A DNA stretch of 63,101 bases, the filler included, from Vannella sp. (lineage: Eukaryota), in NCBI GenBank assembly GCA_023345925.1. It is 7 parts of 7 records of this genome, joined end to end, with 100 filler letters (N's around TTAATTAATTAA, not from the genome) between each part and the next. Parts side by side here need not be neighbours in the genome. Positions count along the whole stretch, not along the records: positions 1 to 12,041 come from JAJQQN010000951.1; 6 more parts are not named here. One strand, written 5' to 3'. Positions within the stretch are counted from its first letter, which is position 1, and each line of letters opens with the position of its first letter. The notes below the pieces were generated by a model that did not search any database, was not told where the DNA came from, and was given only the letters and a program-made list of their open reading frames with translations. The translations under genes and the position numbers were made by a program. Positions 1 to 57,271 of this stretch are shown here, piece by piece.

Positions 1-907
1 GACTTGGGCCTGAATCGGGAAGCAGACAGGATCGGAAGACTGTCGTTGGTCTTCTTCTGCGATGCCTTTAACGATAGTAAGCATTCGAGGACTATCTTGA
101 ATGGGATCATCGTCCAGTGTGATGCAGAGACGGTAGATCCCGCTGATAGGGGCCGAATAAGTGATATTGTAGCAGCAATCCTCATAAATCCTTTCAACAG
201 AGAACTCGACCACTTGTTCCTCTTCCAACGTTTCATAGTGAGCCAAAGTATGTCGGAATTCAACATCAATTGTTGGCTCCACTGCAGTCTGGAGGAAGTT
301 GCCGGGATTCACCAAAACAGGATTTCCCAAAATGTCGGCTAATATCACTTGGAAGGTACTGGGTGTCTGACTAACCCCTCCAGTGCTTCCTTTCCCTTCT
401 AGCCAACATCCCATAGAGTTGATGTTCCCTGTAGGGTGCTCCAGATCAATACAAGACCAAATCATCACCTTAAAACTGCTCACCTGCGCGGACTACCAAC
501 TGGATAGTCTGGTGGATGCTCGTCCCGGGAACAGATAGAAGTAATTGGTAGGGAGAAGCAAAAGCACAGCAGAAGGAGACTTGGTACAGGAAGCTGGACG
601 ATTCGGGAGGAGTCGCAAGAAACGTTATCTCTGCAAAGAAGGGTTCCGGTTCATCCCGGTGGCCCATTTGAACTGGAAGTAGCAGATCCATCCGCGGTGA
701 GACGATCACTTCGATATCACGGCAGTTCTCAGGCTCTGGTGGGTGTGGAAGGTCCAACTGATTCACTTCAACAAAGAACTCTCCCGGATAGCCCGCCACA
801 CATCCCCCCAGACCATCTCCATACACCCTCACCATTCCCCTCGGCACAATCATCCGCTCATCCTCATCCTGGAGCTCCACCACGCCCTCCCACTCGCCCC
901 CAACCAT
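1..907 (-). CDS. Filamin/ABP280-type Ig-repeat protein, 3' end runs off the window
   Basis: Exon 1 has VRVYGDGLGGCVAGYPGEFFVE. After a GTGAG...CTACAG intron (~430-482) the frame continues GCWLEGKGSTGGVSQTPSTFQVILADILGNP. Both match the filamin-repeat start motif. Confidence 0.65.
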
Positions 908-998
908 CCTCCCCGTCCCAGGGTTCCAACAAATGGCCGTTCCCGGCTTTCCGTTCCATTTAACCTTAAAAAAGAGGGAATTTGGAAGTCATTTAAAG

Positions 999-2140
<1,142 letters not shown>

Positions 2141-2300
2141 ATGGGTTCGGCCTAAAATTGACTTACAGTACTCGAATGGAACGGCATTCAAATCGACATC
2201 CTCCGCTTCGAGAAGGAGAGCCTCATGACAATTGAACTCTTTGGATGAGGCAAAGGGGAAGAGGACTTGGCAGGATGCAAGAAACTGAAAATAATGTCTT

Positions 2301-3353
2301 TTACATGAACCCAAGCGGATGGGCTTGTTTTCGATAGGCTTTCCCTCCATCATCAAACCCAAGCATGAAGCCGCACATTGTGAAGAGCGAGTCCAAATGA
2401 GGATGCTCCTTGAGAAGAGCCTCCTTTGCGTTAAGCCAGATGGCTAACGGATGGTAGACACTTTCTCCCGGCCGCCCTTCCTTTTCAAAGCGGTCCCACG
2501 CTTCCTCAATCTCCTTCTTGAAGCGGTAGTTGCATGGATTGGTGCCTCTGGTATAGTGAATAGACCGCACTCGCTTGGGGTCCCACTCTTCAGGCCTCGT
2601 AAAGAACACATTGGCATTGGCACCGTCGTACTTGTAGTCTATTTCCCTCCATTGGTTCTTCCAGTAATGGTTCTGGAAGGGCTGGTCGCCTCCTGTGGGA
2701 CTGAAGAACAACGAGCTGTTCCCAGTCATGTAACAGAATGTCTCTGCCCCAGGAGTGATCACCATGAAGCCTGCATTGAAGAAGGAGGGATCAGTCCAGT
2801 CCCCTTCTGTAGAAGCAAAGTTCCTGCCCGCATACACAGGCCCAGGGAGGTGGCAGAGGTCGTCTGAGTTGCGAGTGTAGACAAAGTCCGAGTCCGAGTA
2901 GATCACCTTCTTGTAGTCGGTCAGTTGCCAAGCTCTAAGCTTTGTGAAGTTGTCTTGCAAGTGCTTGCGCTTGATGGTGCGGTTGGGGTTCGCTACAGCG
3001 TCGATACGGATGACGATCACCCCCAAGCTCCTCACGGCTTCGGCTACTTCTTCCCAGATGTTCGGAGTGATCATCACTACGATGTCGCTCGCTGTTCCTG
3101 TCTTCTGTAGGGAGTGAACGGCAACAGCAAAGCACGGGAAGAAGTCATTCGACGAGAGGAGAAACAGAAACGCGCAGTCTGATTGCCTCTGAGCCGCAGG
3201 AACGTGCATCGCGCTCTTCTCCACCACGCATTCTCTCTCCTGAGAAGAGTTAAATGTTAGGACTAGCAGCAGTAGCCCACAGAGGATGATCGACCAAGCT
3301 ATCAACGGGGCCTTCTCCCTCTGGGCAGGACGAGATCGCTGAACCCCTCCCAT
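2301..3353 (-). CDS. Glycosyltransferase family 8 (glycogenin-like), type II membrane protein, intronless
   Basis: N-terminal TM helix; motifs FTKLRAWQLTDYKKVIYSDSD (DxD), FNAGFMVITP, GGDQ and IHY. Confidence 0.85.
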   Translation of the reverse strand: MGGVQRSRPAQREKAPLIAWSIILCGLLLLVLTFNSSQERECVVEKSAMHVPAAQRQSDCAFLFLLSSNDFFPCFAVAVHSLQKTGTASDIVVMITPNIWEEVAEAVRSLGVIVIRIDAVANPNRTIKRKHLQDNFTKLRAWQLTDYKKVIYSDSDFVYTRNSDDLCHLPGPVYAGRNFASTEGDWTDPSFFNAGFMVITPGAETFCYMTGNSSLFFSPTGGDQPFQNHYWKNQWREIDYKYDGANANVFFTRPEEWDPKRVRSIHYTRGTNPCNYRFKKEIEEAWDRFEKEGRPGESVYHPLAIWLNAKEALLKEHPHLDSLFTMCGFMLGFDDGGKAYRKQAHPLGFM

Positions 3354-3719
3354 CACGATATGGTTCCTTATCAACGCCCGGTTTGGCTTCTAAATCCAAC
3401 GACTAAAGATCTTCAGGTTCCCAGCCAGAGACCAGCACTGGAAACGCCGGCAGCATGGAGGAGTGGTGGAGGCACGTTGATCACGCTCATCAGACTCGCT
3501 AACTTCCTCGCAAGAGCTTCTCCTGTCAATCCAGTGCTTCTCGTGTTAAGAAACGAGTTGGAGTGGACCATTTTCTCGAAAAAAAAGAAAAAAAAGAACT
3601 TGATTCGCAAAAAAAGAAAACCCGTTTAGTCACCAGAACCTCTTTGAGACGAAAAATATTTCAGTTCCAAGGGTCAAATCTTGTGACTCACAAGGTCCAC
3701 GGTTCAGTTTTTGCTAAAC

Positions 3720-4571
3720 ATGTTTGGCAGCCCCTGCTCTCACAGCTTTCTCATTGAGGACTCGGCTCGAACTCTCTGGTTCAGTAGTGGCTCGCCCCTC
3801 TTACCACTTAGACAGATGCCTCAGGCTCTCAAGGTGAAGGGGGCTGCTTTTGCGGGCACATTTTGTGTCCTTGTGGATGCGGAGGGAAGCGCTTACAAGA
3901 CGGACAAAGAGTTTACCACCCTGCTGCCTCTGGAGGGGCTTCCAGGGGTGAGGATGGTGGCAGCTGAGGGCACCACAGTGTTAGCAGTGGACTTTCAAGG
4001 CGTGGTTTGGCTAATTCACCAAACAGGAGCGGCCACTATCGACCAAAGGCTGTCACATCTTCGCATTTACCAAATCACTCGCGGTTATCGCTTCCTCCTC
4101 GCCCAGGACGAGGAAGGAAAGCTTTGGAGTTGGGGCACTAACTCCCACGGCCAACTGGGAGTGCCAGGCGTGGCTAAACTCAAGGAGGTCACTCACACCA
4201 AGGTTGAAGGTCTCCCTACTGGTCCGTTTCGATGTCTGTCTGCTGGATGGGACTTTTCCTTTCTCATAGACTGCGAAGGAGGCGCTTGGGCATGCGGAAA
4301 CAACGAGTTTGGCCAGATGGCGAACGGCTCTCTCCAAAAGGTGGAGACATTCACAAAGATGCCTTCGCTACCTCCACTGGAGAGTGCGAGTGTGGGTGGT
4401 AGGCATGTGCTTGCAAAGGGCGAAGAGAAGGAGACGTGGGTGTGGGGCTGTAATGCTGGACGTCGTCTAGGATTGGAGGAAGTGACGCCTCGAACGCTGC
4501 AACACACGTCTCTCAACCAATCCATTTCGAACGAGTGCAGGGCGGTTCTATTCTCTGATGGCAGTGTCTGA
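3720..4571 (+). CDS. RCC1-repeat beta-propeller protein (3' end uncertain; may be frameshifted and continue to ~4672)
   Basis: Repeats LWSWGTNSHGQLG, AWACGNNEFGQMA and TWVWGCNAGRRLG. Confidence 0.8.
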   Translation: MFGSPCSHSFLIEDSARTLWFSSGSPLLPLRQMPQALKVKGAAFAGTFCVLVDAEGSAYKTDKEFTTLLPLEGLPGVRMVAAEGTTVLAVDFQGVVWLIHQTGAATIDQRLSHLRIYQITRGYRFLLAQDEEGKLWSWGTNSHGQLGVPGVAKLKEVTHTKVEGLPTGPFRCLSAGWDFSFLIDCEGGAWACGNNEFGQMANGSLQKVETFTKMPSLPPLESASVGGRHVLAKGEEKETWVWGCNAGRRLGLEEVTPRTLQHTSLNQSISNECRAVLFSDGSV

Positions 4572-4972
4572 TGGCATTGTCTCCTTCCACGGGAATCAGG
4601 ACAGCACAGACGAGGAGTGGCCGTCATTTTTCCTCACCGCACCCAGCAGGATGAAAAGCGCCCGCAGTTGAGGTGAATGGATGGGTCTGAATCAACACCA
4701 GACATCCCTCCGGCCCCTGGCGGGCCGGACCGCCATCTGATGAGATCTCTTGCATAAAGATTGAACAGGTTCCTCCTTGTTGATCAAGCAGACACCTCCT
4801 CGAGCCTGAAAGCCCCAAGTACAGGGAGAGGACCCCAAAGTACTCCAAAGGGCACCCGTTGGGGGACTTAATCTCCCTCTGACTTGGGAAGGATGGTGAT
4901 TCCCAGGAACATGTTATAACTAGGAATGCTCCTAATTCTACGCGGGAAATCATTTTTGGGCATTCCTTGGGG

Positions 4973-7900
4973 ATGGACGTGACCCTGACTTCGGCGGAGG
5001 GCCTCCAGACGTTCCAGAATCGCTTTGGGGAAGAGGTTACTGTTGGGGAAGTCTTGTTTTGGTTGCAGTACAAGGCAGGCTTGGCCAGTGAGAGGCCTCT
5101 CCTTGTAGATGAGGAAGGGACACCGATCGCCCTTTCAGAGCGAGCCAGTCCTGTGATGTACTACACATCATCCCAAGGCCTTGCAACCAGTGCTTCCACT
5201 GCTCGGGTCTTCCCTAAGCAGATGGAGATTGCTCAGGAGCTCTTTAACACAGCCAAATGGATCCTTGAGCAGGAGAGCGGAGTTCCCATCTCAGAACAGT
5301 TCGACGGCATTGAGTACGTGGTGTGCGTACCTTCTATGAAGAACCTAGTATCTCAAACAAAGGTTCGCATGAGAGACTTGAACTTGGAACCCAACGTACT
5401 CATGTATATGATGAACGGAAGCCACCTACAGAAGATGAAGACTCTGCATTGCCGCATCAAGCACAGTCCACGCACACTCTTTATCATGGTGGCAGATGAG
5501 TGTCATTGGGGTATTGGTTTACCAGAAAGCCAAACGGACAGGGACGGAGCCGCACATATGTTCTTGAACCCTCCAGAGTTATGCGAATGCTCTAATTTCC
5601 TGATTCTGGGAGTCAGTGCGACCCCTTACAACGTTCTGACAAAAACTTCGCGACTTCCGTTCCTGTTTGAGCTCCAAGAAGACTACCTCCAAGCCTCATT
5701 GTCGAAAGGAGACCTATTCAGAGTGCTAGAAAGAGGGAATATTTGGAGAGGGCGCGTGGAAGGACAAACTAGGGAAGTAGAGTTACCTCCAGAGTTTCTT
5801 TTGAAGCAAAAACACAAACACATCGTCTCTTGGGTAAGGAATGTCACCCGAGAGAATGGACTTTTGGACCATCAGATGGACGAAGCACCTTATCTACGAA
5901 TTGAATACTTCCTTCGCTCTATCAACACCCCAACACCTAAGATACGGATGGACGCCGATTTTGAGCGCTTGGCAGACGATTTGAACGAGTCCCTGAGCAA
6001 TGGATCGTATCAGGATCTTATAATAGCAGAGTATGTCTTAGCAGTGCTCTTTGCTGGCTTCATTTACTTTGGTGAAGACCCAAAATCCTTTTGGACAGAG
6101 GTTAAGCAGATTGCAAAGTGGGAAGTTCCTGGAGAGTTTCTCCTTCAAATGAAAAAGACTGGGGACAATGCCGATTATCTGGCCCGAATTCAGCGCCATG
6201 CTGACTTGATTGTAAATGACTGGATTGCGAAAACGAAACTCTCTGGAGCTCAAGCCGGCCAGGAAATAGATGATGCCTCCATCCGTGCTAGAATCATTCA
6301 AGAGAAGAGGGCTGGGCGTGGAGATTGCTATACGACAGCAGACAGAGCCCTTCGAAGAATAGTATATTTGAGGGAAGCTGTTGCTATCCGCATTAGTCCC
6401 AAAGAGGATGCCTTTGCTCTATCCAACATGCTCCAAATAGCCAGGGAGCGTTGTCAGCACTCTTTAGAAACCAAATTTGCGATTGTTTGCAACACTGCAC
6501 AGCGAAAGCTGATCGATTCATCCGAATTCTTACTGCAGCCTCTGGTGTCCGATGCAAAGCGCAAAATGAACGAACGCAACAACCGTAAAAGAGCGAAAGT
6601 GAGCGCGGTTCTCACCCTTGAGCAGTTGGATGTACCATGCTTGCTCATTCTTATTAATATTGGGAAAATGGGAGACACCTTCCCTTGCAACTTTCGGATG
6701 TTTGATCTTCGGGCTATGTATCGCTCTAGAAAAACCAAACCAGCTTTATCAACGTTTATTCAATCCTTGGGACGCATGTGCAAGTATCTGAAGGAAGATG
6801 ATTGCCCTTCTGCCTTTCTGAGTGAGCCTCTTTACAATTCTGTTAAAGAAGCCGTCACAATTCGACAGAGTGACCCAGACAAACAGCTCACTCTACAGCT
6901 TCCTTTTTTTATTGATGGCAAGATAAGCACTCATGACAAGGCTTCTCAGACGTATGAGAGACATGGAGGATTCACAGGGGTGGTGGACGCAACTGAAAAA
7001 TCGTATGACTTTGAGAATTCAATAAGCCATTGTCGCCGTATGATTCTACAAGCCGAGCCGCAAGTGGGAAAGACAACTGCATTCTTATGGTTCCTTAAGC
7101 TCCTCCAAAAGCACTTAGGAAGTCCAAGCGAGGAGTGCATTAGCCCCGAAGAGTCAGAAGCGCATGAGAATCTACCCGGTCGCCTGACTGCCATTCCATA
7201 CTGGAATGACCTTGTCAGGATTCCACCTTCTTCCAGTAGCATCACTCCTCTGTCCAAACTAACAAAAATATACAGACAACGTCTCAAGTGGCTCACCCAA
7301 GCAGGTAACACCAAAGACTGGCTTTCACAGTACCTTCAGCTTGTTCGAGGAGTAGCCAATTCACAAATGGATATCGGAGAGGATGTACTATCCCCAAGCC
7401 TCCGGGCAAAGTTGGATAGACTTCTGGTTAACTGGGGAGATTTAACAAATCCTACAGTGGAGCCGGATTACCCAGAGCTTGCCTGGCGACTGGCCAATTG
7501 GGATGGACGCCTTGATAGAGTCAAAAAGGAAGTTCAGATAGACCAAACAAAAGCTTCCCCACCAGAGAGCAACAAGACTATTGGTTGGGTTAATTTCCTT
7601 CCTCCGATTTCCAGCAAAGCCCTTTCAGTCCGGTCTGCTACTGCAGTTGCAAGCTCTCTTTCTTCTGTCTCCATGAAAACACTCCGCTTGGATCTCACAG
7701 CCATCTCCCGTCAAAACGAATTTGGAGTCCATCTTCAAAGGTCTCATGCACGCCTTTCTGTACCAGATGTAACTCAGTTCCAAGGAGTTAGATCGCTTAA
7801 TGACCTATTTGTCTTCTCTCCATCTGAGGCTAATCGAATTATAGGTTGCAATCCAGCGCATTTAGAACAGTTAAACGTGAACAGAAAAGATTTTTGGATC

Positions 7901-9592
7901 TTTTCGCCCTCTTACAGTGGCACTAATGCCCGTGAACCCAGACTTGACTTCTTCCCAAACATTCCGCATGGACAGCGCCCCATTCATGTTGTTGTTGTGC
8001 GATCTGAAGAGTTCCAAACGTACCAAACGCTCTGGGGCACCCAAAAACTTATCTTGGAGTTGCCAAATCAACTGACAGTCCATGGGCGAGTTATTTCTCC
8101 TCTGATTGGAAAGACAGGTTATGCTCGCTTCTTTATCCAGCTGACTGCCTTCATCTTAAAGCTGCCATCTATCTGGATGGTGGATGACAACATTCTATAC
8201 ACTATCCGCCAGTTCCCAGGAGAAGAGCCTTTCCCATGTCCAATTCGGGAGCCTATGGCATTTATTGAGTCCTTGTTGAGTCCGATACCCGAAGACACTT
8301 GGCAGGAAATGAGAAAGCAAGTTGTCAAGTTGCCTGCTCTGCCCAAGGGAGGAATCTTTGGGGCATTTGGTAATGACACATTTGAGAAGCCTTCTTCATT
8401 TGACTATAGTGGAGATCCGTTTCAAGACTACGCTGCTATTGGCCTTGCAAGAAACACAATGGCATCGTTGAAGCATTGCCGTTATTCCCCCTGGCAATCC
8501 ACTTCCAACTTCTCTTCCTTCATGCTATTGAATGTTGGTGCTATTCCTTTGGGGATAAGGTATCCTTTCAAGGATATCTGGGAGGAGGAAGACTTTCTTT
8601 GGCATTGCCACGAGAAAAAGGAAAGCCCTCTCCGACAATTAGCTGTTGTCCAATGTGGGCTGTTCCATTTCAGCAAAGTGGGAGGAATAGAGATTGTTCC
8701 ACGGACACAAAACGGTCTTCTTCGATGGCATCACAATCTCACGTTCTCTGAGCATGAATGTTCCATCCATGCCAAGCACATTTCTCTCTTCCATCAGTGG
8801 AAGAACGCCCGTGGGATTACAAAAGTTACCGCCACTGACACAACTTCAATCCCAGAAGAAGTCTTCAAACTCGTTACGAAGAACTCTGATCCAACCATGG
8901 CCAAGTGGGCCAAGTTAGTCAAGTTAGCACCCTGTTTGTCCGTTTCTTGGACAAAAGAGGAATTGAGAGACTTGGCCAATGTAGAGCTTTCGCAGATTTA
9001 TGTGTTTGCTGACCTGGGAGCAGCACCTTCTTCAGGACATGCCTTGGAGCTTGTGGAAGGCCAAATCATTCGGCCACTCTTTGCTGGGTTAAGTCGTCCT
9101 ATCAAATCATTTGCAGTGGAAAGTGCGCATTTGTTGGCTGATAATGATCTCTCCATCAATTGCCGGGGCCCCACCTTTTGGCATCGCCTTGCATTAATCA
9201 CTGTCACTTTACGGAAACCTCCTCGCACAGAATCTTCACAAGAGGCAACTCCGAAAGTAGTGGGAGATAGGACACCATCTCCATCAGATGATCATACCTT
9301 CCCAACAGTAGATGAACTACGCCGTTATGGTAAACCAGTGCCACTAACAAAGGATGATTTAAAGAATCTTCCGGAATTCAACGAGTCACCAACTCGCCAG
9401 TACATCAAAGACCGGAGACTCTACGCGGTGTATAAGAGCCAAGTATTTCTTGTTATCAGAAGGCACAGCAAAGAGGCTCTCCAAGTCGAATCCCCCGGCA
9501 ATAAGATATCCTATCCTTCTCCAGGGAAAACGGACCTTTTCCATTTCACAGGAGCCAAGTCCATCCCCTTCGAACTCGACAGAAAGGACTAA
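4973..9592 (+). CDS. GREB1-like protein: circularly permuted SF2 helicase plus C-terminal TAGT/GT-A glycosyltransferase, intronless
   Basis: Motif Ia VCVPSMKNLVSQT, II DECH (5495), III SATP (5615), V GKMGDTFP and VI QSLGR (6761) all precede Walker A AEPQVGKT (7052). The C-terminal part has FSPSY, HVVVVRSEEFQTYQTLW, GYARFFI, IWMVDDN (8171) and EEEDF, as in GREB1/JGT-like glycosyltransferases. Confidence 0.8.
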   Translation: MDVTLTSAEGLQTFQNRFGEEVTVGEVLFWLQYKAGLASERPLLVDEEGTPIALSERASPVMYYTSSQGLATSASTARVFPKQMEIAQELFNTAKWILEQESGVPISEQFDGIEYVVCVPSMKNLVSQTKVRMRDLNLEPNVLMYMMNGSHLQKMKTLHCRIKHSPRTLFIMVADECHWGIGLPESQTDRDGAAHMFLNPPELCECSNFLILGVSATPYNVLTKTSRLPFLFELQEDYLQASLSKGDLFRVLERGNIWRGRVEGQTREVELPPEFLLKQKHKHIVSWVRNVTRENGLLDHQMDEAPYLRIEYFLRSINTPTPKIRMDADFERLADDLNESLSNGSYQDLIIAEYVLAVLFAGFIYFGEDPKSFWTEVKQIAKWEVPGEFLLQMKKTGDNADYLARIQRHADLIVNDWIAKTKLSGAQAGQEIDDASIRARIIQEKRAGRGDCYTTADRALRRIVYLREAVAIRISPKEDAFALSNMLQIARERCQHSLETKFAIVCNTAQRKLIDSSEFLLQPLVSDAKRKMNERNNRKRAKVSAVLTLEQLDVPCLLILINIGKMGDTFPCNFRMFDLRAMYRSRKTKPALSTFIQSLGRMCKYLKEDDCPSAFLSEPLYNSVKEAVTIRQSDPDKQLTLQLPFFIDGKISTHDKASQTYERHGGFTGVVDATEKSYDFENSISHCRRMILQAEPQVGKTTAFLWFLKLLQKHLGSPSEECISPEESEAHENLPGRLTAIPYWNDLVRIPPSSSSITPLSKLTKIYRQRLKWLTQAGNTKDWLSQYLQLVRGVANSQMDIGEDVLSPSLRAKLDRLLVNWGDLTNPTVEPDYPELAWRLANWDGRLDRVKKEVQIDQTKASPPESNKTIGWVNFLPPISSKALSVRSATAVASSLSSVSMKTLRLDLTAISRQNEFGVHLQRSHARLSVPDVTQFQGVRSLNDLFVFSPSEANRIIGCNPAHLEQLNVNRKDFWIFSPSYSGTNAREPRLDFFPNIPHGQRPIHVVVVRSEEFQTYQTLWGTQKLILELPNQLTVHGRVISPLIGKTGYARFFIQLTAFILKLPSIWMVDDNILYTIRQFPGEEPFPCPIREPMAFIESLLSPIPEDTWQEMRKQVVKLPALPKGGIFGAFGNDTFEKPSSFDYSGDPFQDYAAIGLARNTMASLKHCRYSPWQSTSNFSSFMLLNVGAIPLGIRYPFKDIWEEEDFLWHCHEKKESPLRQLAVVQCGLFHFSKVGGIEIVPRTQNGLLRWHHNLTFSEHECSIHAKHISLFHQWKNARGITKVTATDTTSIPEEVFKLVTKNSDPTMAKWAKLVKLAPCLSVSWTKEELRDLANVELSQIYVFADLGAAPSSGHALELVEGQIIRPLFAGLSRPIKSFAVESAHLLADNDLSINCRGPTFWHRLALITVTLRKPPRTESSQEATPKVVGDRTPSPSDDHTFPTVDELRRYGKPVPLTKDDLKNLPEFNESPTRQYIKDRRLYAVYKSQVFLVIRRHSKEALQVESPGNKISYPSPGKTDLFHFTGAKSIPFELDRKD

Positions 9593-9816
9593 ACATCTGA
9601 CTCACTACCTCGAAGCATTTCCTTTGTTAGATCATCACACCCGGACTGCAAGTTTCCAGTACTAAATCTGGTTTAGCGGGAGTTTCCTTGTACTGAAAAT
9701 CCACGAGTGAAGGGGAAGAGGGGGCCGGATTGCCCCACTAAACCACGTCCGCTGGCCTTGGTTGAAAAGTGCCTCTCAATTCGACGTCCAAAAACTCAAA
9801 TTCCTCATCCACGAAA

Positions 9817-9918
9817 GGAATGTTGAGGTATGGTGGAATGTTCGCTAACATTCCTCACATTCCTGTCGGAAGGAATGTGAGGAATGTAAGGAATGTAAGG
9901 AATGTTCGCATACATTCC
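9817..9918. promoter_or_regulatory. Cluster of nine GGAATGT/ACATTCC motifs (MCAT/TEA-domain-like sites)
   Basis: GGAATG at 9817, 9835, 9872, 9881, 9890 and 9899; CATTCC at 9849, 9858 and 9913. Several are at 9-bp spacing, ~130 bp upstream of an ankyrin gene. Confidence 0.45.
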
Positions 9919-10048
9919 TGGCGGAAGCCATTTTTGATGAATCCTTCTTCATCCGGAAAAGACATGTCCTGCCCCTGCAGTAGCTCGCTTTCTTGCATTG
10001 CTTTTCGGCCTAAGGGACGATGGGGGCACATTCAGTCGACCCCTTCTG

Positions 10049-10480
10049 ATGACCACTTGGAACCCCCTGATCCGGCTTCTGGTTGGAAAACCCTTCTGTG
10101 AGGAGGAGATGAACCTCCTAAAGTCCCACATTCACTCAGAAACAGTCTTGGGAAGCACTCCTCTCCATTTTGCAGCCTTAAGAAAGGACACGCGGTTCCT
10201 CTCATTTTTACTGCGCCATGACGTTGACATCAACACTCCCAACTACTACAACGAAACCCCCCTTCACTGGGCCGTCAAGGGAGGACACAAAGAGACGGTC
10301 GAGTTCCTTCTCTCGTGCGGAGCCAAAGTCGACCTTTTAGACTCCGAACACAAATCTGCCAAAGACTGGGCTGTTGAAGAGGACCATGTCCATCTCCTTC
10401 CACTGTTCCCTAAGCGAAGGAAACCCCATTTCTTCGTTCCCCTCTTGCATCATCGCATCCCTGAACTGACTCTCTCGTAA
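10049..10480 (+). CDS. Small ankyrin-repeat protein
   Basis: Repeats STPLHFAA, ETPLHWAVKGGH and LDSEHKSAKDWA. Paralogous to the genes at 36526 and 37512. Confidence 0.85.
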   Translation: MTTWNPLIRLLVGKPFCEEEMNLLKSHIHSETVLGSTPLHFAALRKDTRFLSFLLRHDVDINTPNYYNETPLHWAVKGGHKETVEFLLSCGAKVDLLDSEHKSAKDWAVEEDHVHLLPLFPKRRKPHFFVPLLHHRIPELTLS

Positions 10481-10890
10481 CACATTGAGGAACTGACTCT
10501 CTCGTGACGTATGGAGGGGAACTGGCTTGTTATCCAGCCTGCGACTCATTAAACCTCTTCCAATGGGTCATGTACGAGTTCTGAGAGTTACTCTTGGCCA
10601 GTCTATCCTCAAGTCGGTGTAGGTTCGCGGTTCTGACTGGGATAGTCCATTGGGAGGAAGTTCCAGCAGTCTCCTCGCTTTTCTGTCCACTTGTTGAACA
10701 AGAGACGACGCAAAGAGTCGAATCTCGAAGGATTAGGACGTCTCCAAAGCAACACGAAGGAGAAACGCCTCCTTACCGAAGAGAAGGACGGAACTAACGC
10801 GAGGGAGGACTCTTTGGCTCGCCCTTTCATGCTTTATCAGTGCTGGTGCATGTGTGAGGGGAGTCCTTGGAAGGTGGGATCACTTGTTTG

Positions 10891-11821
10891 ATGGAGTGGG
10901 CGTTGTTGGCGGGGTCGGTGGCTGTGGGCGGGTTGTTCTGGTTGAATGCGAGCCCTTCGTTGGAGAAGACGTTTAGAGGGCGCAAGGTTCTGTTGAGTGG
11001 CGCATCTGCAGGTATTGGAGCGGCTCTGGGAAAGAAACTGGCCGCTTTGGGGGCGGAAGTTTGTCTTGTTGCTCGTCGAGAGGACCGCTTACTCGAGTTA
11101 CAGGTTTGTAACCACTCTCAATCGATGAGAGAGACAGATACTCACTCCCGTGAAGGCTCTGATTCACGCAGAGACTCCAAACAGCCGAGTACATGTGATT
11201 GTGGGGGATGTTGGCGAGAGAACAGACTGCAAACGCATCGTTGAAGCTTCTGCAGAGCTCATGGGAGGCATAGATGTACTCCTATTGAACGCTGGTATCG
11301 GCTGTTTAGTAGAGCTAGAGAAGGTGCCCGAAGAGGACCTCGCAGTGGCTCAAGAGGTGATGAATGTCAACTACCTGGCGAACGTGCACCTCTCCTTCTA
11401 CGCGCTCCCCCTTCTACGAGTCTCTCGTGGTATGATCATCGTCAATAGCTCTCTAGCTGGGATTGGATGGAGCCCAGGAAGGTGCTTTTACTCCGCCAGC
11501 AAGCACGCACTTCGTGGTTTCTTCAACTCGCTGCGCTGTGAGGTGGGCCACGAAGTACAAGTCACTATGACCTATCCCGGCTTTGTAATGTCGGAGATCC
11601 ACGACCGCGCCTACCATGAGAAGGGCAAACCACTCCAACGCAGTGGAGACTTCATGAGCGCGGAGCGTTGCGCTGAGTTGATCTTACAGGGAGCTGCCAA
11701 AGGTTCCAGAGACTATTGTATGACATGGCTTGGCAGTTTTGCTCTGAAGACCACGCCGTTCCTGGGATCTTTGAACGACATTCTCGCCATCCGCAAGGCC
11801 AACTCTGGAATTAAGCAATAA
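10891..11821 (+). CDS. Short-chain dehydrogenase/reductase (11-beta-HSD/DHRS7-like), 2 exons
   Basis: N-terminal TM; motifs SGASAGIG, NAG and YSASK; intron ~11104-11155. Confidence 0.9.
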
Positions 11822-12041
11822 TCAGATCTCAACCACACTCCCCTTATCTCCTTCTTCATCGATACCTGTCCTCACCAGACTAGACTAGTATCTACCTCGA
11901 ATCAGAGTACTCTTAATGAGATAGTCTCTTGAGGGTTTGGCCGATAGTGGAATACCTTCATTGATGAAGGCTGGGATGTTACCTTCAACCGTGAATGAAG
12001 AAAGTACGCCAAAAAGGGTTGAGAGAAACGACGAGAGACAG

Positions 12042-12141
12042 NNNNNNNNNNNNNNNNNNNNNNNNNNNNNNNNNNNNNNNNNNNNTTAATTAATTAANNN
12101 NNNNNNNNNNNNNNNNNNNNNNNNNNNNNNNNNNNNNNNNN
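12042..12141. other. Artificial contig linker (N44-TTAATTAATTAA-N44)
   Basis: 100-nt N run with a six-frame stop linker, repeated identically six times in the window. Confidence 0.98.
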
Positions 12142-20587: not shown

Positions 20588-20687
20588 NNNNNNNNNNNNN
20601 NNNNNNNNNNNNNNNNNNNNNNNNNNNNNNNTTAATTAATTAANNNNNNNNNNNNNNNNNNNNNNNNNNNNNNNNNNNNNNNNNNNN
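20588..20687. other. Artificial contig linker
   Basis: N run with TTAATTAATTAA. Confidence 0.98.
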
Positions 20688-28293: not shown

Positions 28294-28393
28294 NNNNNNN
28301 NNNNNNNNNNNNNNNNNNNNNNNNNNNNNNNNNNNNNTTAATTAATTAANNNNNNNNNNNNNNNNNNNNNNNNNNNNNNNNNNNNNNNNNNNN
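28294..28393. other. Artificial contig linker
   Basis: N run with TTAATTAATTAA. Confidence 0.98.
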
Positions 28394-30594
28394 CAGTCCG
28401 TCCACGGAAAGTCCATCTCCACGAGGGAGCGGTTGTGCATGAAGCTGGCCAAGAGCATCTTCCAGCCACTAGGAGAGATGTTGTTCCCGTCACAGCGAAG
28501 ACGAAGCAGTCTGGAGTTGTATCTCAGCATGTCAGCGATAGCCGAAGCAGCCTGGTCGCCCATTAAGTTGTTGCTCACATCCAACTCCAAAAGAGTGTTG
28601 TTTGTGCGGCGCATGTACTTCAAGAAGGGGATTGCAACGCTGCCAAACCCACCAGCTATGCTAATACTCTTCACAGATGCCAAAGAGTTGGCCACAGACA
28701 TGAGCGCGGACGAGACACGCTCCCCCGCATACGTGGACTTGTAACAATTGTCAAGAATAAGTGTGTCCAGGGTCTGAGTGGCGGATAGAACGATAGCCTG
28801 TAAGATTCCAATAAGTCCTCGCTCTTTGAACTTGTTACGGGACAAGTCCAGAGTGTGGCAATTGACATTCAGCGACAAACTCTGAGCTAACGATTCAGTC
28901 TCAGACTCGCTGAATTCGTTGTTGCAGAGTGAAAGGCAAGTATTAGAAAGTCTCTTATTGCCCAGGAAAGCCTGGACAATGGCACCTCCGTGTACTCCGC
29001 CCAAGTTACAGTGAGACACATTCAATCTCTTCAAAGTATTACTTTTCTCTAACATAGAGCACAGCAGCTGCACAGCTCGCTGGTCAAGCTTACTGTAAGA
29101 AAGATCCAAGTCCTGCAAATCACTTAGAAAGTGGAAATAAGCGGCGATTGTCGAGAAGGATTGCCCAGTATTGGCCAATCGAAGAGTTTGGAGCCGTGAA
29201 TACTCTGCTGCCTTTGATAACCACGTTTCCAAGGCGATGCTAGCCTGCTCATCAAAGCGATTGTTGGAGAGGTCCAGCTCTTCAATAGTCAGAGACATTC
29301 CGTAGTTGGCAGTGAGACTTTCTGCAATAGAAGCCAGCTGCCTTCCATCCAGGGCACAATCAGAGAGATTGAGAACCTTCAAGCTGTGTGGGAAGTTCTG
29401 CAACGTAATGCAGAGCACGGAGATGCCTTTGGTAATGTGAGTTCCAGATAGATCGATCATTTGAAGCGCGTGGGACCGATTGTACTGCAGTGCTTCCCCC
29501 AGCTCTGTCACGTTCCCTTCTGAGAGCTGAGATAAGGACACCTTGGTGATGCGACTGTTATAGCGAAGAATGTTGCAAAGGGCGAAGAGAATATCCTTCT
29601 TATAGACTTGTACCGCTGAGATAGCCTTAAAGTAGGTGTTGTAACGCAGTGCAGCAGCGATTGGCTCGATATTGAATGAGAACTCGCCCTTAGGTTCGAT
29701 GCCAGGGCAGTCCTGGAAGCGGAACTCGACCACCCCAGCTTCATGCAAGTCCGTGACGTACCGCATCACTTCGCCAGAGATAGCCTGTTTGTAGAAGGTG
29801 CTAAAGGCTCCGAAAGTGAAGAGAAACCCGTTCGCTGGCCCAAAGGCCGAAGGGTCGCACGGTTCCAAAGGGAGAACACTACAAACAGCAATAAAGAGTG
29901 AGCTAAGGATACCCTCCTTGTAGAGCACACTTACTCTTCTTCTTCTACACCAAACAGGCCAGGTAAACGAGCATTGGGGAAGCCGTACGTGAAGAGACGG
30001 ATGGCCGTGCGAATCTGTCGGATGTACTCTGCTACCAACGGCGTGAAGAGGACAAGCGGAGACTTTTGATAGAACTGGAGCTCCAGCTAGTGCTGTATGA
30101 GTCCAGAGGAACAGGGGAGTGGCAGGGAGGGTCCTAACCTGTCGTTTGTTATTCTTAAAGACTGAAATAGAGCGCAATGCGAGGAGATGGAACTTCTTGG
30201 TGATCTACAGGAGAGAAGTAACGCATGTGAGCCATTGAGAAGGTACAACAGGGTGGGAATAGAGCGGAGAGAGCTACCTTGAGGCGAACGGAGCCTGGGA
30301 AGAGGGTTTTCTTCTTCTTGCCGAGCATAGAAGACTTGATGCGCGCCTGTTTGATGATGAAGATCATATACGACCCAATGACTATGATACGCTTGGACAC
30401 CTTCGTGTTCTCCTTCGTTTCACCCCAACGAGCAAAGACTACTTTGTTTTGGTACTCAGAGACGAGTCTCTCCACGCAGTCTTCTCTTCTGTGAGTACTA
30501 GCGACCTCCCTCCATCCCTCTACTCACGTAATTGACCCTCACTAAGCTCATTGGAGCTGCGAGCGCTCGTCTTCTTCTCCACCCGCAGCGGCAT
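28394..30594 (-). CDS. CARMIL: CARMIL-like PH plus RNI-like LRR protein, multi-exon, 3' truncated
   Basis: N-terminal PH-like KRIIVIGSYMIFII; GPANGF..T...F..FY; PIAAALRYNTYF; many LxxLdLSxN repeats; LDVSNNLMGDQAA. Confidence 0.75.
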
Positions 30595-30614
30595 CGCTCA
30601 GAGCGGCCTCAGAA

Positions 30615-32417
30615 ATGGTTCCCTGGCGAGGTACCTTCTTATTTTCGATGCTGCGTGGGGCTGGCGTGGTCCAGGTGGCGAGGAGGAAGCGTCCCGCAGG
30701 GTTTTGGAGAGAGAAGGAGAAGGCGGCCGCCTTTTTAGAGGCGTTGGCGCAGCGGTGGTGCTTGAAGGCTCCTGAGGATTGGGCAGGAGTTACTACTCGC
30801 TGTGTACTCGAGGAGGGTGGAAGAGGGCTGCTGGCGGAGTACGGTACGCTTCGCAAGGCGTTGGAGGAGCTCCGTCCAGAGGCTGTTTGGGACTACTTTG
30901 CGATGGGCAAGTACCCACACGGTCATTGGGACACCCCTGAACATGTAAGACTCTTCATGGAACGCTTAGCGGCTGAGTATCAGGTGGAATCGCCTCCGGA
31001 TTGGAGAAGAGTGACGTGGTCCCAAGTAGACCTCCACGGAGGAGCTACACTGCGCAAGAGGTTCCCCAACTTTGTAGCTTTATTGAAAGGAGCGTTCCCT
31101 GAACAGACAGAGTGGGAGGAGAGCGTGGTTCGAGAGAAACTGCCGCAAGGCTTTTGGGACCTTCCAGACAATCGGAAGCGCTTCTTGGAGCGTGTACGAG
31201 AGGATATGGCCGTGCGCTGCGCGGATGATTGGCGTAAGGTGTCGACGAAGGATATAGTGGCCATGGGAGGCACTGGAATGCTCTCCAAGTATTCTACTTT
31301 TGAAGAACTCTTGAGAAAGGAGCTTCCCGATGAAGGATGGAGCACTTTTGACACTCGCGACCGCGTTTCTAATGGATATTGGACAGCAGAACGTATCAGA
31401 GAACACGTGGAAAGTGTCAGGACCACACTTAAGGTCAAAGAGCTGGATGATTGGTCTTCCATCTCACTTCTCCAATTTCGGAAAGCCTCTGGCAATCGTT
31501 CTTTCCATAACCAGTTCCCTAACTTTGTGGAGCTGTTGCAGTCTGTTTATCCAGAACACACTTTCGATCCATTTGATTGGCAAAGGCTGCCTAGAGGCTA
31601 CTGGAAGAACATTACTAATCAGCGCCGATTCCTGGAGAGATTCGCTTTTGAGCACAATATCCAGGCTCTCTCCGACTGGCGAAAAGTGTCGTACGCCTTC
31701 CTGGAGAGGAATGGGGGCCGTTCCCTTCTAAGACATTACCCTTCCATGCTTGAGATGTTACAATCAGTCTATCCTGAACACCATTGGGACATATTTGATC
31801 GAGATAACGTCTCGGGAAGATACTGGAAAGATCCCCAAAGACAAGCTGGTCTACTAACCCAGATTGCCGAAAAGTTTTGCATCAAAACTCCAGAGGATTG
31901 GTACCGGGTATCCCTTAAGCAGCTGCAATCTATGAGAGTCGCTTCTTATGTCAAGCGTCATGGTGGCCTTTACCAGATTTTGAAGGAATCCCACCCAGAA
32001 GTCCCTTGGGAGCAATCCAAATTCCAGACTAGAGATAAGCGTTCCACCCAACGCTCCATGTTCTTGGCGCTCCGGGACTTGTTCGAAGGAGAAGAGATTG
32101 TAGAAGACTTCTTTCACGAAGAACTCACAAGAGAGAGCGGCTCTGGCATTCAATTTGACGTTTTTGTTCCTCGACTTCAAGTGGCTTTCGAGTACCAAGG
32201 GGAACACCACTTCCGGGACATTCCTGCTTTTGGCACACTGGAGCTGTTCCAGTCCCGAGACAAGGAAAAGGCCAAGCTATGTGAGAACTTTGGAATTCAC
32301 TTAGTTACAGTGCCGTATTGGTGGGACGGCTCGAAACAGCATTTGAGTGACTTGGCCTCCAAACAGCACTTTAGCATTCTCGAAAAGCAGCTCTTACCAG
32401 ACCGCATTAAAGTGTGA
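30615..32417 (+). CDS. Protein with six ~74-aa helical repeats and a C-terminal PD-(D/E)XK (Vsr/DUF559/RAP-like) nuclease domain, intronless
   Basis: Repeat consensus G(F/Y)W...N.R.FLE......DW..V.......GG..LL..Y......L...(Y)PE..W. C-terminus QFDVFVP...AFEYQGEHHF...RDKEK...C...GI.LV.VPYWW. Confidence 0.8.
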   Translation: MVPWRGTFLFSMLRGAGVVQVARRKRPAGFWREKEKAAAFLEALAQRWCLKAPEDWAGVTTRCVLEEGGRGLLAEYGTLRKALEELRPEAVWDYFAMGKYPHGHWDTPEHVRLFMERLAAEYQVESPPDWRRVTWSQVDLHGGATLRKRFPNFVALLKGAFPEQTEWEESVVREKLPQGFWDLPDNRKRFLERVREDMAVRCADDWRKVSTKDIVAMGGTGMLSKYSTFEELLRKELPDEGWSTFDTRDRVSNGYWTAERIREHVESVRTTLKVKELDDWSSISLLQFRKASGNRSFHNQFPNFVELLQSVYPEHTFDPFDWQRLPRGYWKNITNQRRFLERFAFEHNIQALSDWRKVSYAFLERNGGRSLLRHYPSMLEMLQSVYPEHHWDIFDRDNVSGRYWKDPQRQAGLLTQIAEKFCIKTPEDWYRVSLKQLQSMRVASYVKRHGGLYQILKESHPEVPWEQSKFQTRDKRSTQRSMFLALRDLFEGEEIVEDFFHEELTRESGSGIQFDVFVPRLQVAFEYQGEHHFRDIPAFGTLELFQSRDKEKAKLCENFGIHLVTVPYWWDGSKQHLSDLASKQHFSILEKQLLPDRIKV

Positions 32418-35640: not shown

Positions 35641-35830
35641 CTTTTGGCACAATGGAACTTTTCGGTCTCGACAAGGAAAAGGCCAAGCTACTTGGGAGCT
35701 TTAGGATTCACAAAGCTGAATTGCTGTGTTGGAGACGGCTCGAAACTACATGTAAGTGACTTGGTCCCCAAGCAACAACATTGTTGTTGAACTTCCAAAA
35801 GCAGCTCTTACCTGACTGCATAAAAGTGTA
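35641..35830 (+). pseudogene. Decayed duplicate of the 3' end (32227-32417) of the repeat-nuclease gene
   Basis: Collinear shared blocks CTTTTGGCAC, GACAAGGAAAAGGCCAAGCTA, GACGGCTCGAAAC, AGTGACTTGG, AAAAGCAGCTCTTACC and AAAGTGT, with indels. Confidence 0.85.
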
Positions 35831-36278: not shown

Positions 36279-36378
36279 NNNNNNNNNNNNNNNNNNNNNN
36301 NNNNNNNNNNNNNNNNNNNNNNTTAATTAATTAANNNNNNNNNNNNNNNNNNNNNNNNNNNNNNNNNNNNNNNNNNNN
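36279..36378. other. Artificial contig linker
   Basis: N run with TTAATTAATTAA. Confidence 0.98.
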
Positions 36379-42320: not shown

Positions 42321-42420
42321 NNNNNNNNNNNNNNNNNNNNNNNNNNNNNNNNNNNNNNNNNNNNTTAATTAATTAANNNNNNNNNNNNNNNNNNNNNNNN
42401 NNNNNNNNNNNNNNNNNNNN
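42321..42420. other. Artificial contig linker
   Basis: N run with TTAATTAATTAA. Confidence 0.98.
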
Positions 42421-49872: not shown

Positions 49873-51216
49873 ATGGACGTTTGGGGCACGGTTGGGGTCG
49901 GGCTGGTTATTGGGCTGTTGGGGAGCTTTCTGGCCTCGTTTGCGAGGAACTACTTCCGCATTCGACGGATTCTACGTGCTTATTACTCGGAAGCGGTTCT
50001 TACGGTCCCGGGGATGAGCCTGGAAGAAGGTAGGCTCGAATGGAGACTTTGGAGCTGGACGATGACTTGAAGGGCAGACGCCAATCAACGTGTGGGGATG
50101 GACAAGTTCCAAGACGAGCTGACCCAGCTTCGCAAAGATACAGACCTCGCCAATGAGTCACGAGCGCGCTTGACTCCCACACTAGTGGAGGAGGCTGACC
50201 GCTTGAAGACCAGAGGGCTTTACGGACCCGAATCCAAGGTTTGGGAGGTCTCACGAGAGTCTGGTTCCTTCTTTGGAGGTGGGCGTGCTGTCTTCTTGCA
50301 GCTGGCCCATCCTTTTGTAGCAGCTGGAGTCCAACAACATTCGAAGGTCGCAGACGACATTCAGGTTCGAGTTCCTGCCTCCTGTAGACCTCTCCTGACT
50401 TAATTTTAGCGTCGATTCAACAATACCTTTCATCATGTCTTCAGAATGAACTTTGGGGACCTGGAAACCGCAGAACGCTCCGCTAAGCAAGTGCGCGCCG
50501 TTCATAATCGTGTATTTGGTCAGCTTTCAGGCGTCCCGCCTTATCCAGAAGGCTCAGAGTACACTGCCAACCACCAGGGAGCTGTAGTTTGGGTTTGGGC
50601 GACACTCGTTGAAACATCAGCACTCATGTTTGATCTTCTTGTGAGGGAGTTGAGACCCGAAGAGTCTGAGTCCTTCTACCAAGACCAGGTGCAATTCGCT
50701 CGCTTCTTCGGAATTGTACCTTCGGAGGTTCCTCCCACTTGGATTGAGTTCCAGCGTTACTGTGCCCGAATGTGGAATAGTGAGATCCTGACGGTTAGTC
50801 CTTCTGCCCAAGAGTTAGAGAAGCTCTTGTTCAGGCCCCAGTCACTATTTCCAAGCCTAGTAAATCATGGGATCCGCCGGATAACCTTTGCGTTGATGCC
50901 TCCTCGACTTGCAAAAGGATTTGGCTTCGAACCCAACGCACTGGACCGAGAAGTGCTCTATGCATTCTTTGCCCTCAGTAGTATGGTGTACTCTCAACTT
51001 CCAGGCTCATTCCGCTATCTGAAGGCCTATTGGGAGGCGGAGACTCGCATTAGAGGTAAACCCATCCATGTGGAGTGGATGGGCCGCTTGTCTGCCGGCT
51101 TAGCCGACATTATTATGAACAAGTTCATTATGGACCCTTCTCAGAATGGTACTACTGCCACTGGTCTGGCCAGTAATACGAATCACTTGGACTCGACTGT
51201 CTTGGAAGTGCGTTAA
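49873..51216 (+). CDS. MpaB/DUF2236 oxygenase-family membrane protein, 3 exons
   Basis: N-terminal TM; GLYGPESKVWEV.RE..FFGGGRAVFLQLAHP.VA.GV.QHS; VRAVH..V.G; Y.AN....WVWATL. Confidence 0.85.
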
Positions 51217-54939: not shown

Positions 54940-56363
54940 TCACCAATAGGGATCGAGTAGTGCCTCGAAATCAGGGGCTACAAACCTGGCATATTCACGG
55001 TTGATATGAACAGAATCTTGGAACTGCTGGATTCCATGAATGACATTCCAGCATGTTCTGTTGGGGCAGATAAACGCGTCCATGTTCAACACAGCATATT
55101 GGTTTTCTTCCCCCGCAGCTGTTAGTTGCTCGCGGGCTTCCCAATATCCGTTTGCTATGGATGCTGGTCCAAAGCAGTCTGGATCGCCGTTCTCTAAGCA
55201 GGGTTCCATTCCAACGCCTACCAAATTGATATGAGGGAGCATGATGACTATTTTCGTTAAAGGAGACACGTTGATGAGAGCTTCCTTGACTCCTTCCCTC
55301 ATTATCTTATTCCATTCGGGAGATAATCGACTGGCCCATGGCCCGTTTGGAACAGAGGCGCTACGGATTTGGCTGTGAGTAGTGAAAGAGAGGCAGAAGA
55401 GGATGATGGACTTGGGAGGGGGCTGGCGATTGATAGCATCCCACAGTCTTTCTTGGTCGAATTCGTTCGTAGGCTCTCCGGCACTCCAATTTGGAATCAG
55501 TTTCATCCAAGGCGTTGAAACTGCCACCAAATGTTCGATCCGTATGGATCTCTTCTTTCTGATTGAGCTAATGACACCGCTTTGTACCCATTCTTGCAGA
55601 TAGGAGTCTCCAAGGAGCAATGAAGGGCCTACCGTTTGGACAGAGGTATCTGACGGAGCACCTCCAGGATGGCCTTCAAGAGTTCCCAGTTGTTCGTTTT
55701 CATCTTCAAACGTGAAGTTTGTTCTCGGAAGGAGTATGAGGATGCTCAGAAACGCGAGAATTGAGATCACAAATCCACAAAAGAGAACCTGGGACGACGG
55801 CAGTCGAAGAGATTTGAGAGGCTTCTCAAGAAGAACATTCGAGATGGCTCCGCAAGCGAAAGTCGCTAAAATCAAGAAGACACCTCGAACCAGATCCATT
55901 TTCGTGTCAAAGGAACGCGTCATTTCGTCCACAAAGATCAGAGGATAGTGCCAAAGGTACATCGAGTAAGAGTACAGTCCAAGCCTTTGAAAAAGGGGAC
56001 CAGAAAGCACTTCTGCAGCAAAAGTCGAAGAGTTGAGCTCGAAGCCGACGATCATTAGGGCCATGCATCCCGTTGCAATCGCCCCTGCTAAAAGTGGCGC
56101 GATTTTGAAAGGGTAAACACTCAAAAGGAGGAAGCACACGAGCCCAGTGTAGGACAAGGTGCTGGAAAGAGCCTCATTTGAGATGAATTGCTTCTTTTCT
56201 GTCCTGGAAAGCTGCCACAACGCCAAGCATGCACCCACTACCAGCTGATAGATACGGAACTGCGTTCCATAATATAACGTGCTCGCAGGAACGCCTTGAG
56301 AGGCGCATGCGAGAGTGAATGCACAGCAAAGCACCAGAAGGCCGATCGCAAAGAGGAACACTC
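54940..56363 (-). CDS. Acyltransferase-3 plus SGNH (OatA/OafA-like) protein, C-terminal half only
   Basis: YYGTQFRIYQL..G, G.YSYSMYLWHYPL, LEKPL; SGNH motifs LLGDSY and DSVH. The 5' half is absent at the junction. Confidence 0.75.
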
Positions 56364-57271
56364 ATTGCTGGTGTATCTGGCGTACAAGCTTGGAGGGAGC
56401 CACCAACGAGTGCTCCTCTTTGCGATCGGCCTTCTGGTGCTTTGCTGCGGGTTCACTCTGGCCTGCGCCTCTGAAGGCGTTCCTGCGAGTACGTTATATT
56501 ATGGAACGCAGTTCCGTATCTATCAGCTGGTAGTGGGCGCCTGCCTGGCGCTGTGGCAGCTTTCCAAATCCGAAAGGGAAGTAAATCGGCAGGGGCCCCA
56601 GCCGGGGCTCGTCTCAAGCGCAATGTCATACACTGGATTGACATCCTTTCTACTTCTCAGCTTGTATCCCAATGAGATCGCGCCTCTGCTGGCCGGAGCG
56701 ATTGCAACGGGATGCATGGCCCTCATGATCGTCGGCTTCGAGCTCAACTCTTCGACCTTTGCTGCAGAAGTGCTTTCTGGTCCCCTTTTCCAAAGGCTTG
56801 GACTGTACTCTTACTCGATGTACCTTTGGCACTATCCTCTGATCTTTGTGGACGAAATGACGCGTCCCTTTGACACGAAAATGGATCTGGTTCGAGGTGT
56901 CTTCTTGATCCAAGCCACGATTGCGTGTGCAGCAGTCACACATGTCGCAATTGAGAAGCCCTTGAAGACGATGAAGATTTCTACGGCATCAGTTCTGGTC
57001 GTTGGGGTGATCATATCACTATTCGTGAGCTCAGGCACTTTCATTCTTCTCTCTGACGCACCAAAGATCGTGATTGAAGAGGACCACGTGATCCTGGACC
57101 CTCCTTCTCATGCTCCTGAGACAATCGATCCTCCCAAAGCGATTGAGATTCTTGATCCTCCCAAAGCTGTTGAGATTCTTGATCCTCCGGCCCAGGCTGT
57201 CGAGGATCATGAAAATCGCGAGACTGTGGAACTTGGACCGACAATGCTGGTAGGAGATTCTTACTTGGAGG
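56364..57271 (+). CDS. Second AT3-SGNH paralog fragment, inverted relative to the first and truncated by the contig end
   Basis: Near-identical AT3 helices; linker with ILDPP(K/A) repeats; ends at LVGDSYLE. Confidence 0.75.
57090..57192 (+). repeat. Coding 27-nt tandem repeat (EILDPPKA-type), about 4 copies
   Basis: GATCCTCCCAAAGC...GAGATTCTT units. Confidence 0.75.

Follow-up and report, generated by a model that had tools for sequence, protein, structure and literature searches.

A GREB1-like permuted helicase-glycosyltransferase of Vannella sp. with a replaced catalytic aspartate

GREB1-like proteins, in which a circularly permuted superfamily 2 (SF2) helicase module is fused to a TET-associated glycosyltransferase (TAGT) domain, have been described in choanoflagellates, ichthyosporeans, mycetozoans, cryptomonads, haptophytes, heterokonts, and Naegleria-like heteroloboseans (Shin et al. 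2021, PMC7968844). Animal GREB1 is described as carrying a Zn-binding domain at its N-terminus and a helicase that lacks catalytic activity, and protein O-GlcNAcylation by human GREB1 is the sole published activity found for eukaryotic helicase-fused members (PMC7968844). The literature searched held no study on the activity of protist GREB1-like proteins. A signature of the form R..DDD..EDY/F is common to the kinetoplastid base J glucosyltransferase (JGT) and phage DNA glycosyltransferases (bioRxiv 2023.12.21.572611). The subject of this work is a GREB1-like gene in a 63,101-nucleotide stretch of DNA from Vannella sp. (assembly GCA_023345925.1), referred to here as the window. The gene is a single open reading frame (ORF) at positions 4973-9592 (+) and encodes a protein of 1539 amino acids (aa), P0001. 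Its domain layout is already known. The variant clade to which it belongs was not found in the literature searched; Iyer et al. 2013 and the alignment in Fig. S3A of Shin 2021, which lie outside that search, may note variant active sites.

A replaced aspartate in the glycosyltransferase domain

P0001 is a genuine GREB1-like protein with a permuted SF2 module (cpSF2) and a TAGT-type glycosyltransferase (GT) domain of the GT-A type, as the initial annotation had proposed from the DNA. The Pfam family PF20692 (cpSF2-GREB1) matches it with 251 bits against a cut-off of 26.2 (E 4e-74), the top ESM Atlas feature match is a GREB1 cluster (0.94, 210/256 features), and both folds appear in predicted structures. 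These structures were AlphaFold (AF2) models built from 22- and 28-sequence alignments and were compared by VIA-align. Non-animal GREB1-like proteins are widespread, as a representative search gave 427 GREB1-like clusters at 50% identity (E <=0.001). Conservation was read from an alignment of 150 relatives listed by an iterated hidden Markov model search, in which each count refers to the rows covering that column. Positions conserved at >=95% outside the clade of P0001, P0037, and P0038 were taken as near-invariant, and there are 31 such positions.

The TAGT-type GT-A domain covers aa 969-1240 (7877-8692, +). The isolated domain scores 27.5 bits with Pfam PF20691 (TAGT), which equals the cut-off, and the whole protein scores 24.1 bits, below it. 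The region aligns with relatives that pass this cut-off, and PHROG 842 (beta-glucosyl-HMC-alpha-glucosyltransferase) matches P0001 weakly (E 0.0036). The GT-A fold proposed for the C-terminal third was borne out by the predicted structure. The model of the GT core is confident, and GT-A enzymes stand on top of the structural matches to the GT half (best Z 13.8, root-mean-square deviation (rmsd) 3.1, 173 aligned). The metal- and donor-binding motif DDN is kept at aa 1071-1073 (8183-8191, +), where the two Asp occur in 96/97 and 94/95 relatives, and DD 1071-1072 comes after a predicted strand. The domain further retains R1052, N1187, and K1235, and keeps 7/8 near-invariant GT positions. Within the clade, identity is 32-38% in the GT, 39% in the second RecA domain (RecA2), and 20-24% in the termini. 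The GT appears to be constrained and not decaying, because its conservation among the three proteins equals that of RecA2. Because of this conservation and because DD, R1052, N1187, and K1235 are kept, the GT of P0001 probably still binds metal and a nucleotide-sugar donor.

Phage relatives of the GT domain were not found by tblastn against phages, which is no proof of absence. Pattern scans of viral contigs and one pattern scan of prokaryote genomes, being limited to the patterns used and likewise no proof of absence, gave no relatives. There was no match for P0001 in PADLOC or NCBIfam, and PDB sequence searches with P0001, A5, and A6 gave no significant match.

The region of the catalytic base reads D1201-I-W-E1204-E1205-E-D1207-F1208 (8573-8596, +). 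In GT-A enzymes, the Asp of the xED motif is located at the start of a helix, alpha-F (PMC7185993), and a hydrophobic tether lies three residues past it (positions 180 and 183; PMC9364030). The GREB1-like family follows the pattern W-E-D-[ILV]-x-F-N-x-x-C. F1208 and C1212 of P0001 align to this pattern gap-free, which gives the register W1203-E1204-[D]1205-x-x-F1208. In this register, a helix is predicted from 1204 onward, and F1208 occupies the tether position. Position 1205 is Asp in 76/78 relatives outside the clade and Glu in P0001. It is the sole loss among the near-invariant positions, of which P0001 keeps 30/31. Because Pfam decides membership by its profiles, the change sets P0001 apart as part of a variant clade within the family. 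The initial annotation had listed DD and EED as the motifs of the GT. The DD stands, but the EED (1205-1207) is two residues out of register.

The closest relatives of P0001 also lack the aspartate. The xED region is WEEIDF (Glu) in P0037 (34%) and WSQQDF (Gln) in P0038 (32%). The clade of these three proteins received a UFBoot value of 100 in an IQ-TREE analysis of 24 of the 52 full-coverage sequences, and SH-like values of 1.0, 0.983, and 0.967 with 52, 84, and 89 sequences. Its members share D1201, which occurs in 1/81 proteins elsewhere, together with D1207, Lys604 in the helicase, the loss of a Gly after GKT, and an insertion of ~55 aa after helicase motif III. D1207 is present in 5/5 proteins without the xED Asp as compared to 12/75 that keep it. 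Two proteins outside the clade are likewise without the xED Asp and have D1207, namely the kinase-fused P0044 and P0113, which is degenerate in general. Judged from the alignment, a small protist clade has a remodelled GT active site, and the residue altered is precisely the one that usually decides the mechanism of a GT-A enzyme. The last homolog search for further clade members gave just the same 12 proteins. In a search with a profile built from the three members, only their own clusters were matched, an outcome that follows in part from how the profile was made.

The permuted helicase motor and its insertion

The circularly permuted SF2 helicase module is predicted at aa 78-716 (5204-7120, +). 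Its model has a pTM of 0.76, with pLDDT 85-95 in the Walker A strand and helix, and each of the 50 structural matches listed is an SF2-type helicase, a remodeller, or a complex of such proteins (best Z 10.0, rmsd 3.7, 288 aligned). Motif Ia lies at aa 119-133. It is followed by motif II (Walker B), DECH, at aa 175-178 (5495-5506, +), whose D, E, and H occur in 100/101, 100/101, and 97/101 relatives, and by motif III, SAT, at aa 215-217 (5615-5623, +). Motif V, GKMGDTFP (aa 564-571), is followed by an invariant D-x-R whose D578 and R580 occur in 136/136 relatives (both within 6662-6712, +). Motif VI is QSLGRMCK, with QSLGR at aa 597-601 (6761-6784, +). Walker A, QAEPQVGKTT, comes only at the end of the module (aa 693-702; 7049-7078, +; Q697 134/134, GKT 132/132), and its position C-terminal to the other SF2 motifs is as first annotated.

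Walker A is C-terminal to motif VI in 129/129 proteins covering both, and all seven core residues (D175, E176, H178, Q597, R601, K700, and T701) are intact in 80/88 covering relatives. By these counts, a permuted intact motor is the family norm and is not peculiar to this lineage. Intact motor motifs are uninformative about the lineage because they are ordinary in non-animal members. The catalytic motifs that had been described as apparently intact are thus so in the motor, where this is ordinary, but by the standard of base J enzymes the active site of the GT is altered. Likewise, DECH, SAT, and QxxGR are all present as annotated, but motif VI is not fully canonical because its second Arg is Lys604, in P0001 as in the whole clade. 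Elsewhere, position 604 is Arg in 105/136 proteins, Gly in 17, and Lys in 1/136, which makes it non-Arg in 31/136. The Gly after GKT is present in 119/132 proteins elsewhere and lost in the clade, so that P0001 has GKT-T.

The motifs are given the roles that they generally have in SF2 helicases. For the second Arg of motif VI, the literature searches found no paper supporting such a role, nor anything on its change to Lys. The helicase half of P0001 retains 23/23 near-invariant positions. Its motor probably hydrolyses ATP, because the near-invariant helicase residues are all kept, position 604 is variable elsewhere, and other invariant Arg remain (R132, R580, and R601).

The clade-shared insertion after motif III occupies aa 229-286 (5657-5830, +) and is predicted to form an SH3-like beta structure. 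It matches Pfam SH3_2 with E 0.0041 and 17.2 bits (cut-off 21.8), and 6/7 of its weak PDB matches (E 0.29-1.2) are Shank1 or ARHGEF7 chains of 59-65 aa. In the model of the helicase module, it forms five short strands with pLDDT 88-93. The insertion thus resembles an SH3 domain, with support that stays under the cut-off. It is absent from P0039 and P0061.

Possible activities of the remodelled protein

How would a GT-A domain work with its usual aspartate replaced? The reading favoured here, and held tentatively, is that the motor is active on nucleic acid and the GT transfers sugar onto nucleic acid by an altered chemistry. In this model, the permuted SF2 motor would hydrolyse ATP on nucleic acid and present a nucleic-acid site to the GT-A domain fused to it; that domain is predicted to keep metal and nucleotide-sugar binding. 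Sugar transfer would then proceed by an altered chemistry because Glu replaces the usual catalytic Asp. Glu1205 may itself serve as the base, D1201 or D1207 of the clade may stand in for the Asp, or a base-free retaining mechanism may yield the anomer opposite to that of base J. In published surveys, retaining GT-As frequently have Gln or Glu in place of the xED Asp (PMC9364030), Glu acts as the base in the inverting families GT43 and GT14, and phosphate-acceptor enzymes do without it (PMC7185993). The GT mechanism cannot be read from position 1205 alone. We infer ATPase activity, persisting sugar transfer, and an acceptor that is nucleic acid rather than protein. A nucleic-acid step is argued for by the intact motor, and by analogy with the characterised TAGT-domain relatives, which act on DNA bases, a nucleic-acid acceptor would be favoured. 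A bolder version, rather improbable as it stands, is that a former base-J-type GT, now retaining or otherwise re-engineered, and an ATP motor decorate DNA or RNA with an undescribed sugar mark, which would be of the opposite anomer or sit on a new acceptor.

Several observations weigh against the favoured reading. The clade consists of three known sequences only. P0038 looks more degenerate, with Ser-Gln at xED, R1052K, and G1157A, and P0001 has the further losses K1227Q (K in 69/78), N1209L, and H1178S; these changes fit a pseudo-enzyme equally well. The motor could be weakened by Lys604 and by having GKT-T where GKT-G is usual. Human GREB1 glycosylates protein (PMC7968844), and the SH3-like insertion points toward protein partners. 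Lastly, E-D-F at 1206-1208 matches the EDY/F of JGT and phage enzymes if the helix has slipped by two residues. This slipped register is disfavoured on the alignment because F1208 and C1212 align gap-free and because it would place Arg at the +3 hydrophobic position in P0037.

The losses could mean that the GT-A domain merely binds a nucleotide-sugar, a glycan, or a glycosylated base as a reader or regulator, leaving the motor as the working enzyme. None of the three clade members has the near-invariant catalytic Asp (76/78), which P0038 replaces by Gln, P0001 is also without K1227 and N1209, and the TAGT Pfam score is just 24-32 bits in the clade. However, many relatives with the Asp intact score equally low, and active GT-As with Glu or Gln at xED are documented (PMC7185993, PMC9364030). 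The clade also retains DD, R/K1052, N1187, and K1235 and has gained D1201. Remodelling of the GT appears somewhat more likely than its death because two clade-wide aspartates flank the site, and a pseudo-glycosyltransferase is judged somewhat unlikely. Protein O-glycosylation as in human GREB1 is doubtful to a similar degree. Here GlcNAc or another sugar would be placed on cytoplasmic or nuclear proteins, reached through the SH3-like insertion or while the enzyme is bound to nucleic acid. The insertion itself is consistent with this, as are the kinase, caspase, WD40, ankyrin, and OTU modules of relatives and the reported O-GlcNAcylation of ER-alpha by GREB1 (PMC7968844). That same report describes a low signal and no donor specificity in vitro, and the animal helicase is inactive whereas the P0001 motor is intact, which implies a nucleic-acid step. 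Moreover, the retrieved sequences included no identified animal GREB1 ortholog that would place P0001 close to animal GREB1.

A canonical base-J-like enzyme, which would invert and add beta-glucose to hmU or hmC made by TET/JBP in host or viral DNA, is improbable. It would account for the TAGT and PHROG 842 matches, the GT-A fold, the intact motor, and the literal EDF at 1206-1208, which resembles the EDY/F of JGT and phage enzymes (bioRxiv 2023.12.21.572611). Against it, all clade members have Glu or Gln where the family register puts the Asp, and according to a review of 2024, base J occurs in kinetoplastids and close algae and is seemingly absent from other protozoa (PMC11065753). The initial annotation had seen no TET/JBP partner on the contig. 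None was matched in 29 ORF segments of the window (E <=0.001), which is weak evidence because the window joins seven contigs and the gene's own contig is just 1-12041 (12 kb). The ATP-driven nucleic-acid glycosylating enzyme proposed in that annotation thus survives in part: an active ATPase is likely, but base-J-like DNA modification and an antiviral role are without direct support. If the favoured reading is correct and DNA or RNA is marked, eukaryotes outside kinetoplastids would have a new form of nucleic-acid glycosylation. With a dead GT, the clade would be a modest case of pseudo-enzyme evolution.

Gene structure, surroundings, and comparison with described systems

The 1539-codon frame has no stop, for which the probability by chance is ~4e-33. 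Three DNA runs from one biofilm study contain the stretch and may be its source; no RNA run was listed as containing it. The ORF DNA in runs X1-X3 has 10 substitutions, 0 stops, and 0 frameshifts, and 6/10 of these strain variants are synonymous against an expected fraction of 0.25 (p 0.02). A 1-base deletion at 4969, upstream of the ATG, in one X1 contig (depth 4.98; possibly an error) mildly supports the annotated ATG start. Five insertions are unique to P0001 in comparison with both P0037 and P0038. The gene is likely without an intron, as first annotated for this 4.6-kb ORF, because these insertions measure just 6-15 aa each. Being compact and probably intronless, it could be expressed directly. 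The third-codon-position GC content (GC3) of the gene is 0.47, the joint lowest among 18 ORF segments (range 0.47-0.66), a deviation too mild to argue for recent transfer. A mobile element was also rejected, as no convincing terminal inverted repeats flank the gene and its neighbours are ordinary.

The ends of the protein are less conserved. The N-terminal 76 aa (4973-5200, +) had been suggested to be ubiquitin-like, a suggestion that found no support: 0/3 N-termini in the clade had a Pfam match, no ubiquitin fold was among 6 PDB matches, and residues 1-76 have pLDDT <50. The N-termini of P0037 and P0038 are similar to each other (z 9.0), and that of P0001 is not significantly similar to either (z 1.6 and 0.0). 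After the GT, a region of ~180 aa (8693-9232, +) shows weak similarity to its counterparts in P0037 and P0038 (z 5.8 and 4.2, from 200 shuffles); it has pLDDT <50 and no Pfam match. A C-terminal segment of ~95 aa (9305-9589, +) is shared with P0038 (z 6.8) and also has no Pfam match.

Right past the stop codon, at ~9640-9790, lies a short high-copy dispersed repeat with a summed contig depth of 43-213 as compared to ~1-8 elsewhere (X1-X3). It shows many loose ends and a 12-bp inverted repeat (9669-9680 / 9734-9745), and it has no second copy in the window and no Rfam match. An imperfect hairpin of short tandem repeats follows at 9826-9918 (arms <=30 nt, 87% complementary). The gene's neighbours on its contig are filamin-repeat, ALAD, GT8, RCC1, ankyrin, and SDR genes. 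On 1-12041, Rfam gave nothing at gathering score and ARAGORN no tRNA.

Six identical N-spacers with a short palindromic core separate the contigs (12042-12141, 20588-20687, 28294-28393, 36279-36378, 42321-42420, and 57272-57371). Adjacency across them is meaningless because the window consists of seven separate contigs. Its ORFs include cullin, kinesin, and eS8, which are eukaryotic, and a CARMIL-like protein on another contig (best match LRRC16A, E 1.6e-20). Provided that the contigs stem from a single genome, the latter suggests an amoebozoan or another amorphean as host. An ORF of 623 aa at 30546-32417 (+) has repeated Trp-rich units and, by eye, a PD-(D/E)xK nuclease-like end. Pfam gave nothing for it at E 0.001, and part of another copy lies near 35670-35830. 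A head-to-head inverted duplication of an acyltransferase-3/SGNH gene is present at 54940-57327 (arms 84-90% complementary), and 50410-51216 (+) encodes an MpaB/Lcp-type oxygenase domain (PF09995, E 7.5e-33).

GREB1-like genes elsewhere show further variety. In P0042, P0043, P0044, P0051, P0060, P0092, and L004, accessory domains comprise ankyrin, protein kinase, caspase, WD40, and FYRN/FYRC, which suggests repeated recruitment of GREB1-like proteins to signalling or chromatin roles. The gene at L010 4035-8456 begins with an OTU deubiquitinase domain (E 2.7e-5), and its TAGT score is strong at 85 bits. The next ORF (L010 9103-10950) has an end segment that gave no Pfam match and that we take, by eye, to resemble a PhyH-type 2OG-Fe(II) oxygenase. 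Closely similar GREB1-like genes with long uninterrupted ORFs, several with ankyrin tails, occur in L001-L007 and L014 and as P0003-P0008; some copies, those in L007 and L014, are divided between frames, and L006 has a fragment of a reverse transcriptase nearby. Scores on PF20692 of 887 bits for P0039 (Planoprotostelium, 2887 aa) and 732 bits for P0040 (Hondaea, 4793 aa) suggest duplicated helicase modules.

How does P0001 compare with described systems? Retaining GT-As and the inverting GT43, GT14, and GT2-DP enzymes without the xED Asp resemble it in that their alpha-F helix starts with Glu or Gln; no sequence relationship to them was found, and the likeness is one of analogy only. Since the retrieved sequences included no identified animal GREB1, JGT, or phage TAGT protein, these were compared with P0001 through profiles and papers. 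With kinetoplastid JGT and phage TET-associated GT-As, P0001 shares the GT-A fold, the Arg and acidic DD motifs, and a weak PHROG 842 match. Helicase fusion is described for proteins of the P0001 type and not for these enzymes in the passages of the sources covered. JGT and phage GTs have an unchanged ED Asp and a TET/JBP oxidase as partner, whereas P0001 has Glu and no known oxidase partner. Animal GREB1 and GREB1L have the same order of cpSF2 followed by a TAGT-type GT; unlike them, P0001 has no GREB1_N, GREB1_2nd, or GREB1_C Pfam matches (up to E 1), and its motor is intact. The protist and invertebrate GREB1-like proteins with PF20692 and PF20691, such as those of Planoprotostelium fungivorum (PRP75493.1, P0039), Hondaea fermentalgiana (GBG30820.1, P0040), and Cyanophora paradoxa (P0044), agree with P0001 in the order of their domains, in the permuted Walker A and the intact DExH motor, and in DD, GYAR, N1187, and K1235. 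P0044 has lost the same Asp, yet falls outside the P0001 clade. P0001 departs from proteins of this type in the Glu at the xED Asp, the gained D1201, the Lys in motif VI, GKT-T for GKT-G, and the SH3-like insertion.

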